Of a DNA stretch of 9,387 bases, positions 6,001 through 9,000 are shown in pieces. Position numbers: made by a program. Source of the stretch: a virus (lineage: Duplodnaviria > Heunggongvirae > Uroviricota > Caudoviricetes); the IMG/VR virus record IMGVR_UViG_2684623171_000015. One strand, given 5' to 3'. How positions within the stretch are numbered: the stretch's first letter is position 1; each line of letters starts with the position of its first letter.

Positions 6001-9000
6001 TTATTGTTCATAGCGTTTAAATCTCTCATCAATTAACCACAGCGCAACACTTCCAGAAAGTTTTGCCAGAAGGCCAGCTAATGCGGATATATCACCATCA
6101 TTTAATTTATTAGGGTACACCTCAAGAAGTCGGCAAATAATTTCTGTCTGGTGCGCACGTTCAGCGGCTTCGTGTAATGTAATTTCCTTCATTAATGCCC
6201 CCCTTTTAATTCATGTACTGCTGCAATAATTACATGTGATAAACCTGCTTTACCGGAATTACTGATTACTGAATCAATCGCCGCTTGCATATTAACGGCC
6301 TTCACGTTCTGCGTGATGCCAACGGTATAGCCGCGCTTGTTAACAGCACGGGAAAAAACGCGGAAGGTTTTAAGCACGGCACACCCCCTGACGAATACGG
6401 GCGACAAATACAGCAACACAACCTGACGGGCAACGGCTACGCGCTTCGCGTTCCGTCCAGGCGGTTACGTGGATGATTTGAGATTCTCCGGCACTCAGGG
6501 CCAGAAAACGCCAGATGTATTTATTCAGGTTGTGCGAGTCCCGCCCTTGCGGGTGTGTGGTATGATTTCTCATAGCTACCTCGATACTGTTGCTATCGTT
6601 GGTTGTTAGACGCCCTGTATGTGTGCCACCACTGCGGGGCGTTGTTATTTGGTGCATCGCACCATCTGTTTTTAACCTATCAGCAAGTGAATCGCACTTC
6701 AAGCCTTTTCTCTGAATTTTTTTTGTGTATACTGAATCGCACCAACTTAGAGAGGATTCAGTAATGGCAACAGGTTCAACAAATAATAAGTCGCAACAGT
6801 TAAATGCCAGATTCCCGCATGATGTTGTTGCAGACTTAGAAAAAAATTTAGATGAAGGTGAAAGCAAAGCGCAATTTATAGTTACTGCCGTTAAAGGCGA
6901 AATCAAACGCCGCCAGCGCCGCAAGGCCAAAGAGCAGGAATAGTCCACCAGCAAGCCAGCACACTGAGCACATTGCCCACCAGACAGCAAATCGCTATGA
7001 TGTTCGGGCTTATGTTTAGTGTTTTCCCATTGGCGACCGCCACAGGTCGCCTTTGTTTTATGTGTCATATGTTCCCCCTACGCTGCCTTACCTGAATTAA
7101 TACGATCCCGGCTTTTAACCCATTCCATAACCTCGGAAAGCAGCCAACCTACTGAACGACCACCCAGATTACGGCGTGACGGGAAATTCCCTTTTTTCTC
7201 CAGTTCGTAGCGTGTAGTGCGGCACACTCCTGTTAACTTACGGCATTCATCCTCACGGATTACGCGATCTGATAGTGATTGAAATTGTGTATTTTGATTC
7301 ATAAAAAAACGTCCTCGAACGTTGCCGAACGAGGACGATTCTAGGCGGTAGTAAAACGCCGTTTGTGTGATATCACACTACCAGCACGTGATATCACTTT
7401 TTACGTTTTTGTTGAGATTCACGCCCCAAATACTTTTGCCATGTCTGCCAATGTGTTTTTGGAAATTCTATCCCTCTGGATGCAGCTATAGAATCAATTA
7501 AATCTGCTATTTTAGGTAATGATTCCGTGTCCAGGTCTACATCACCCATTTCTGGAATAAGTTTAATTAAAGAGTAAATAACCTCATTCCTTTTTGACGA
7601 TGCTTTTGGGCTATCTTCTGTTATCTTCGGGAAGTCTCCCGTATTTTTTATATTATCTAAATCACTAGCCATCACACACAAATAGTTAACATCAAATTCA
7701 TAACCACCCTTACAAAAAACATACATGAGATTATCATCACCATACTTATTCGTAAGATGAGAACATTTTATATATTGTCTCATGCTAAATTCGACATCAG
7801 CAAAAACATATGCCGGAGTATAATAAAACCCTGATAAGCTGCTAACATAATAACATTTGATAGAATTCCCTACAGGACCAATAATGGCACTATCTAAAAA
7901 TTCAGTGTCACCAGTTAAACCAACTGTAAAATTACTTCCAAAAACAGCAGATTCATCATTGAAAGGATATTTTATTAATTCTTCCTCATTACAACCATTG
8001 ATAAAATGACATAATGAAAAATTGAATTTTTTAGCATCAATTTTTGGTATATATACAGAAATATTAAGAGCACCTATATATGCGTAATGATAAAGATCTT
8101 TTATTGCACAGCCTAACTTTTCTGCCGCTTCAGGTAACGGATAATAGAGTCTTTTAGGTAATTTCATTTGGCCACCTTCAGCATAACAATATTTTCATGA
8201 TTTCCAGCCAGCACATCGAGGCGCTCAACCCATAGATTAAGAGCGTCACGTTTTGCATCAAGATAACGGGAGTGATTATAGACTCGTTGCATTCCTGGCA
8301 ACTGGTGCGCGGTAAGCTGCTCCACAACATGCGGTTCCACGCCTAAATCGTTCAGCATCGTTGTAAACGTGTGCCGGATGTCGTGCAACGTCCAGGGGGC
8401 TTGATTAATGCGTCTGTGTGCCGTTCTTCCGTACTCTGATACGGATGATTGCCCTTTCAGTTCTCCGAGCAATAAGCCCGTGTGCCTGTTCTGCTCCACC
8501 AGCTTCATGACAAACGGCAAGATCGCTTCCGGTATTGGCCTGAATATTGCTACCTTCGTTTTGCTGTGTTCTTTCGGCACGGTCCAGAGCATTTCTTTAA
8601 AATCCCATTCCTGGACCTCAGAGCGTCTTAGCTCAGTGGTACGACATCCGAAGACAATCAGGAGGCGAATCAGGGCGCTGTAGTACGGTGGGTAAATTTT
8701 TTCATCAAGGGCGCGTAGTAATTCCCCAAGCTCCTTGTTTGTTAGTACGCGCTCGCTTATTTCTGCTTTTTTCCCAACATCACCGACAACCATATCATCA
8801 AGAACGTTGCTGATTGCGTATCGTCGTTTTCGGCAGTACTTAAGCGCCTGTTTGCATACCTGTAGCAAAAATCCGGCTGATACCGGATTACGCTTAGCAA
8901 GCTGGTCAAAACAGGCCAGCCAGTGGCGTAGCTCGCATTTTTCCAGTGGCATAGCTCCAATCTGGCTAATTATGTGTTTATTGATCCGGCTTTTCAGTGA

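Follow-up and report, generated by a model that had tools for sequence, protein, structure and literature searches.

A candidate regulator of alpA encoded between int and alpA in phage satellites of Gram-negative bacteria

The viral record IMGVR_UViG_2684623171_000015 (Caudoviricetes), a stretch of 9,387 nt referred to here as the window, represents a satellite of the type termed phage-inducible chromosomal islands (PICIs), and carries between its int and alpA genes an open reading frame (ORF) of 257 codons, ORF257. Gram-negative PICIs were described in 2018, and how a helper phage turns them on has been unsolved since (PMC6092414). AlpA is their autoactivating master regulator, the helper phage switches on alpA transcription via an unidentified inducer, and no repressor is known for these islands (PMC6092414; PMC11773190). 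The analysis presented here suggests, with a probability of about one half, that the ORF257 family comprises modular regulators dedicated to the alpA promoter of Gram-negative PICIs, and ORF257 is at present the most promising candidate for a sensor/regulator of induction built into satellites of Gram-negative bacteria.

ORF257 (7394..8167, minus strand, 257 aa) follows the gene for a 407-aa tyrosine integrase (int, 8164..9387, minus strand; Pfam Phage_integrase and Arm-DNA-bind_3) and precedes alpA (7078..7302, minus strand; PF05930, E 3e-16), which encodes the master activator of Gram-negative PICIs (PMC6092414). Its ATG (8167-8165) overlaps the int stop codon TGA (8166-8164) as ATGA and has a Shine-Dalgarno-like AAGGTGG upstream. 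Both this overlap and the location between int and alpA had been described in a sequence-only reading of the window, as had a GC content far below that of the neighboring genes (0.323, compared to 0.484 for int, 0.462 for alpA and 0.529 for the primase gene). The recent acquisition suggested there from the base composition did not hold up: members of the family have a low GC content in every host (0.29-0.39 for the ORF and 0.39-0.51 for int), and so has an unrelated DUF6387 gene found in the same slot of other islands (0.34). As low GC is constant for the genes of this slot in all hosts, it cannot be taken as a sign of a recent arrival.

Sequence searches identified 19 close homologues of ORF257 and a wider family of 390 cluster representatives at E<=1e-3, 54 of them at E<=1e-30. 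Neither ORF257 nor any of the 19 members matched Pfam at E<=0.1, and an NCBIfam match was also lacking. No relative of ORF257 was found in PADLOC or the PDB beyond its N-terminal winged helix of the Xis/AlpA/MerR type. In PADLOC-DB v2, only mad1, a 60-aa helix-turn-helix (HTH) model, was matched (E 0.015, residues 8-34), and a single member matched REase_II (E 0.0016), with no match extending across the family. The phage family phrog_13283 matched ORF257 weakly (E 0.02), and this match and that to mad1 each cover about 30-48 aa. An enzymatic motif was not detected in the family. ORF257 is a genuine gene of a previously undescribed family and belongs to no known one; the Pfam, NCBIfam and PDB searches gave no confident match to a housekeeping or structural family.

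At every homologue that could be placed, the gene order is fixed: an int gene of 406-407 codons, the ORF with an overlap of 4-8 nt, about 90 nt of spacer and alpA. This synteny holds in E. coli, Salmonella, Klebsiella, Providencia, Pantoea, Enterobacter and further Enterobacterales, and the same order occurs in satellite-looking contigs of 8-17 kb in the viral catalogue. In related islands at the same cspD site, the slot is empty and consists of only ~400 bp of unrelated spacer, while in other islands exactly the int-alpA slot is taken by the DUF6387 gene. Thus, the slot is variable, yet the arrangement is rigid whenever a member of the ORF257 family occupies it. The earlier description of the interval as an accessory position is therefore accurate as far as its contents are concerned (nothing, DUF6387 or the ORF257 family), but not with regard to the strict synteny and the fixed operators, described below, that accompany the family. 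In line with a patchy distribution, and not a uniform presence in all related islands with normal GC, a module of type A, the class to which the window belongs, was found in 66 of 5,426 complete E. coli genomes and was absent from all deposited phage genomes; among 687 genomes matching an int/alpA query, 47 cover the query at >=80%. The DUF6387 protein resembles ORF257 in its slot, its overlap with the int stop codon, its size and its low GC content, but is unrelated to it (hhalign probability 0.9%) and is not accompanied by a palindrome pair. An example with 284 aa is encoded in E. coli O114:H49 90-9280 (locus L013, 3894-4748), and DUF6387 also adjoins AlpA in Klebsiella ICEKp258.2 (PMC10763509).

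Between ORF257 and alpA lie two perfect palindromes, which had already been noticed at the ORF257 stop codon. P1 (7388..7397, no strand assigned) has the sequence GTGATATCAC, overlaps the stop codon (AAG TGA TATCAC, with the stop at 7394-7396) and starts 95 nt before the alpA ATG. P2 (7365..7378, no strand assigned) is an extended palindrome, GTGTGATATCACAC, whose core GTGATATCAC (7367-7376) starts 74 nt before the ATG and 23 nt upstream of a -10-like hexamer; the centers of P1 and P2 are 21 bp apart. A third match to GTGATATCAC was not found in the window even when one mismatch was allowed, compared to 0.14 matches expected by chance, and two or more occurred in 1 of 200 shuffles. Across 16 independent type-A loci, the starts of the dyads fall 91-96 and 71-74 nt ahead of the alpA ATG; these positions are kept although the remainder of the spacer is no longer recognizably similar. 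In Klebsiella, P1 reads GTGAATTCAC instead of GTGATATCAC; the two changes leave the dyad symmetry intact and are not matched by a compensating change in P2.

The palindrome pair does not depend on the sequence of AlpA. It is missing from islands without the ORF and from DUF6387 islands that encode the same or nearly the same AlpA: the AlpA of locus L004 is identical to that of the window from D12 onward, and the AlpA of L013 differs from that of L010 by one residue after position 12, and neither L004 nor L013 contains the palindromes. Because the pair is absent where the AlpA core is identical or differs by a single residue, AlpA is unlikely to require P1 and P2. The operator class follows the C-terminal domain of the ORF257-type protein instead. 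Four loci whose C-domains are of type B or B' lack GTGATATCAC and exhibit dyads of the GGAAATTTCC type at -93/-94 and -72/-73; in the type-B locus L144, TGGAAATTTCCA is found twice, at positions equivalent to those of the type-A pair. The N-domain does not track the operator class, as its identity is alike within and between the classes (0.51, 0.49 and 0.49), and the closest A-B pair reaches 0.72. Since the operator class covaries with the C-domain and not with the N-domain, the simplest reading of these sequences is that the C-domain acts as an operator-specific DNA-binding module. At the ends of both type-A and type-B ORFs, an AAAAAG-stop motif is conserved. The type-B ORF spans both operators (L144, 1004-1045, and the 3' ends in L136 and L142), and its C-terminal tail (for example ...LEISKSPMEISKK) is translated operator DNA.

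Three domains can be distinguished in ORF257, for which an AlphaFold2 model was obtained with a predicted local distance difference test score (pLDDT) of 78. The N-domain (aa 1-48; 8024..8167, minus strand) is a winged HTH of the Xis/AlpA/MerR type with the fold beta1-alpha1-alpha2-beta2-beta3, and is the most conserved part of the wider family. Its best structural matches are excisionases or recombination directionality factors (RDFs), namely Pukovnik Xis, RdfS and the GIsul2 AlpA-family excisionase, which agrees with the excisionase/MerR-like HTH assigned to the N-terminus in the sequence-only reading. It is not recognized by the hidden Markov models PF05930 Phage_AlpA, PF12728 HTH_17 or MerR. 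The remaining ~200 aa, which that reading could not assign to any family, fall into a middle and a C-terminal domain, both without known relatives. The middle domain (aa 49-186; 7610..8023, minus strand) is beta-rich and hypervariable, with a mean pairwise identity of 0.27 and a minimum of 0.13, and it is proposed to be an input or sensor module. Only G113, F114, E126 and L163 are invariant in it, residues 103-170 are modeled with a pLDDT of 80-93, and no relative was found in the PDB or BFVD. The C-domain (aa 187-257 plus the stop codon; 7394..7609, minus strand) is helical (helices 187-202, 217-230, 240-246 and 250-255), carries the motif G-I-E-F-P-x-T-x-x-T-W-x-K-Y-L-G-R, ends in a basic tail (KRKK) and is proposed to be the operator-binding output. 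The proteins of the family are mosaics: the C-domains can be 94-96% identical while the N-domains share 33-42% and the middle domains 12-15%, as would be expected of a constant output combined with swapped inputs. In a remote relative of 380 aa (P0100), the N-terminal winged helix plus middle module is duplicated in tandem.

The region between P2 and alpA contains further conserved elements. A hexamer of the form nAnnAT is found 22-23 nt downstream of P2 in all loci (TAGAAT in the window, 7338..7343, minus strand) and is regarded as a putative -10 element of the alpA promoter. It directly abuts an 8-bp stem, CGTCCTCG...CGAGGACG (7310-7337), which is followed by seven T residues (7303-7309) and forms with them the alpA leader hairpin (7303..7337, minus strand). 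The 3' arm includes the alpA Shine-Dalgarno sequence GAGGA; the hairpin is terminator-like and also covers the ribosome-binding site; the T-run between the hairpin and the ATG is present in E. coli. The hairpin was identified by folding (minimum free energy -19 kcal/mol, z-score -3.9) and by covariation in 18 loci (the window, L006, L009, L010, L013, L037, L055, L072, L097, L098, L125, L136, L137, L139, L140, L142, L144 and L145). In these loci, 91% of the cells pair, compensatory changes are found in eight of eight pairs, and none of 500 shuffles was as good. It is present with or without ORF257, as in L013, and absent from the ORF-less islands L003-L005 at the cspD site. The loop (7318-7329 in the window, and the equivalent place elsewhere) contains a conserved direct repeat with a 10-bp period, CGTTC-N5-CGTTC in E. 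coli and CGAAC-N5-CGAAC elsewhere, where a monomeric protein of the Xis type might bind, AlpA itself being one candidate.

Transcription of alpA is predicted to start about 7 nt past the hexamer, near 7330, at the end of the 5' arm of the hairpin. This start would place the centers of P2 and P1 at about -41.5 and -62.5. With the 5' arm situated between the hexamer and the predicted start, only read-through transcripts could form the stem, while alpA transcripts starting near 7330 would lack the 5' arm and be translatable. A read-through int-ORF transcript, on the other hand, would form the stem and be terminated or silenced, leaving alpA insulated. Two dyads about two helical turns apart near -41.5/-62.5 and the lack of a recognizable -35 element are reminiscent of lambda CI at OR2/PRM and of CRP-type class II and class I activators, a likeness that depends on the predicted start and involves no homology to ORF257. 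This geometry and the absent -35 element lean towards activation, and repression by occlusion or a roadblock would be equally compatible. Accordingly, of the suggestion in the sequence-only reading that ORF257 is a repressor or sensor for alpA, the dedicated role at the alpA promoter is favored by the conserved operators and their covariation with the C-domain, while the sign of the regulation may go either way. The alpA stem hides the ribosome-binding site in its 3' arm in the same manner as in the fold-back inhibition of IS10 and IS50, but the likeness is one of geometry only, and with its T-run the E. coli stem may simply terminate transcription.

In the proposed model, ORF257 would be made together with the integrase in the quiescent island by means of the translationally coupled ATGA overlap. 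Its C-terminal helical domain would recognize the two GTGATATCAC dyads just downstream of its own stop codon, and the bound protein would thereby control the transcription of alpA, the autoactivating switch of excision and replication. The N-terminal winged helix and the hypervariable middle domain may together constitute an exchangeable input module, and the leader hairpin would shield alpA from read-through of the co-directional int-ORF transcript. A more tentative extension of the model, which is possible but considered less probable than the regulatory role as such, concerns the sensing of the helper phage. Here, the input module would read a helper-phage product and so decide which phage induces the island, and ORF257 might be the so far missing sensor for the helper phage in a subset of Gram-negative PICIs, a one-protein switch in which the N- and middle domains bind the phage product and the C-domain, located at about -41/-62, turns on or releases alpA.

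Functionally, such a switch would be analogous to Stl of the Staphylococcus aureus pathogenicity islands (SaPIs) and Rpr of Gram-positive PICIs. Like these, ORF257 is encoded by the island next to int, would be expressed in the quiescent state, has its proposed operators at the promoter of the induction gene and diverges strongly between islands. In Stl, the divergent sensing part defines the inducing helper-phage protein, and the same is proposed for ORF257. There is, however, no relationship in sequence or fold: in Stl, the HTH is of the Cro/CI type and located at the N-terminus, and its gene and the target gene diverge, whereas ORF257 is co-directional and carries its putative operator-specific domain at the C-terminus. 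Unlike Stl, it also contains an extra Xis-like N-domain, and its proposed target is an activator gene, alpA. With the AlpA/Xis/MerR superfamily, ORF257 shares the winged-helix fold of the N-domain, but it is larger, has two further domains, and its associated operators are dyads that follow the C-domain and not the winged-helix domain.

Several observations weigh against a dedicated regulator of the alpA promoter. That ORF257 binds DNA is itself inferred, its C-domain does not detectably resemble any DNA-binding domain of known structure, and the helix-loop-helix of this domain has a connector of nine residues, longer than the turn of a classical HTH. The DNA coding for the C-domain adjoins the operators and overlaps them in type B, and the covariation between the two could consequently be due in part to linkage. 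The model leaves the role of the invariant N-terminal winged helix unexplained. A consensus scan found no complete sigma-70 promoter upstream of alpA in the window or in the DUF6387-type island L013; consequently, the promoter and the transcription start are predictions, and ORF257 may be either an activator or a repressor. Finally, most E. coli PICIs do not carry an ORF257 gene, and ORF257 therefore cannot be the general mechanism of induction.

Among the alternatives, ORF257 might be accessory cargo, either a single-gene defence or a helper-blocking protein, as the sequence-only reading had also proposed. The palindromes would then be only its own or local signals, and the middle domain would bind a phage protein in order to inhibit it or to trigger abortive infection. 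Satellites are known to carry defence genes, much defence cargo is AT-rich as this gene is, the gene is rare and patchy in a slot that may also be empty or hold DUF6387, and a hypervariable, mosaic middle domain is what an arms race would produce. Cargo is nevertheless considered unlikely. The PADLOC match is confined to 27 residues of an HTH (E 0.015); ORF257 shows no signature of a nuclease, NTPase, TIR, toxin or membrane protein, and the middle domain has just four invariant residues; with neither a defence-family match nor an effector motif, the single-gene defence or abortive-infection proposal is not supported. Free cargo would also not be expected to keep a strict synteny and a fixed operator geometry at the alpA promoter across genera, nor should the operator class switch together with the C-domain. 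The structural matches of the N-domain to excisionases and RDFs raise the possibility of a partner of the integrase instead, a large factor for directionality or excision control whose Xis-like N-domain works with the coupled Int, the palindromes being unrelated to recombination. The invariable ATGA overlap with a conserved int clade of 406-407 aa and the conservation of the N-domain across the wider family, whatever the operator class, would be in agreement with such a function. Still, this seems improbable, as ORF257 with its 257 aa and three domains is 3-4 times larger than known RDFs, and where Xis typically binds direct repeats, the conserved sites are dyads, located at the alpA promoter about 2 kb away from the island's att end. 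Moreover, islands that occupy the same cspD/yljB site and have related integrases do without ORF257, and the excision-promoting function in PICIs is already supplied by AlpA (PMC6092414).

A role of P1 and P2 as RNA also has to be considered. The two sites are mutually complementary and could pair to give a stem-loop of 10 bp at the 3' terminus of the int-ORF mRNA, acting as a stabilizer, processing site or terminator, and binding by ORF257 would not be needed. Where both sites are perfect, the stem is indeed stable (-14.8 kcal/mol and z-score -2.7 in the window; z-scores of -4.1 in L009 and -4.8 in L144), and an identical pair in Trabulsiella has the look of an ordinary terminator. This explanation is nonetheless judged highly improbable. 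The stem is lost where the sites have drifted (z-scores of -1.0 in L006 and -1.3 in L136) even though positions and half-sites are kept, and the symmetric change of the Klebsiella P1 was not compensated in P2. In the satellite loci, no U-run follows P2. The sites also keep their spacing from the -10-like element and the ATG to within 2 nt, a constraint for which a stem-loop at an mRNA 3' end would have no need. A dedicated regulator that binds the dyads as DNA remains the preferred reading.

The core of the operator also occurs in other settings. In Trabulsiella (L027, 2869-2899) and in a viral contig (L102, 2165-2195), GTGATATCAC-N11-GTGATATCAC precedes a T-run and has the appearance of a normal intrinsic terminator, and because of these copies, the GTGATATCAC pair alone is not diagnostic. 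In L087 (4740-4850) and ~40 similar IMG/VR contigs (L083-L135), which represent uncultured human-gut phages of 50-60 kb, four to six (G)TGATATCA(C) sites adjoin a TTGACA/TATAAT-like promoter between two divergent ribbon-helix-helix-like genes. This cluster shares its core with the satellite operator and is apparently unrelated otherwise. A helper-phage regulator using the satellite operator was also considered, but these unrelated gut phages with their ribbon-helix-helix genes are the sole phages with similar arrays.

If the regulatory reading, including its sensing extension, is correct, it would account for the helper specificity of some of the satellites in Salmonella, Klebsiella and enterohaemorrhagic E. 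coli (EHEC) of serotypes O157:H7, O145:H28 and O103:H2. It would also introduce a DNA-binding domain of a new type that comes in at least two operator specificities, together with a new beta-rich fold for sensing, and reveal a functional analogue of the SaPI Stl built from wholly different parts. In addition, orthogonal pairs of phage-responsive promoters and regulators would become available for PICI-based diagnostics and “antibacterial drones.” The family offers a concrete and cheaply testable candidate for an island-encoded sensor/regulator, with mapped candidate operators, two natural specificities and naturally swapped inputs. Whatever ORF257 does, the conserved alpA leader hairpin and the operator geometry are new cis-regulatory facts on PICI induction.

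With regard to its setting, the window is a 9.4-kb PICI-type satellite that carries, besides int and alpA, a D5_N/DUF5906 primase gene, DUF4222, Icd-like and small ORFs, and TerS-like (Terminase_2-like) and capsid-like genes. It fits the description of Gram-negative PICIs, which calls for an int-alpA-pri core in a unidirectional element of about 10-15 kb that integrates site-specifically and has genes for packaging interference but no complete virion module. An identical copy of the island is located between clpS and yljB/cspD in the chromosomes of EHEC of the three serotypes mentioned above. A YlcI/YnfO-family gene (6725-6943) is the sole plus-strand gene of the window. After it comes a hairpin resembling a terminator (7032-7051; GGCGACC...GGTCGCC plus a T-run), which is directed towards the 3' end of alpA. 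The region 979-2688 encodes a Terminase_2-like small subunit (2065-2688), the RefSeq version of which is shorter (162 aa), and a 307-aa capsid-family protein; the island has no portal, protease or large terminase gene. In this respect, the packaging genes of the window resemble the Rpp-type packaging-redirection genes of E. coli PICIs more closely than those of a capsid-forming PICI.

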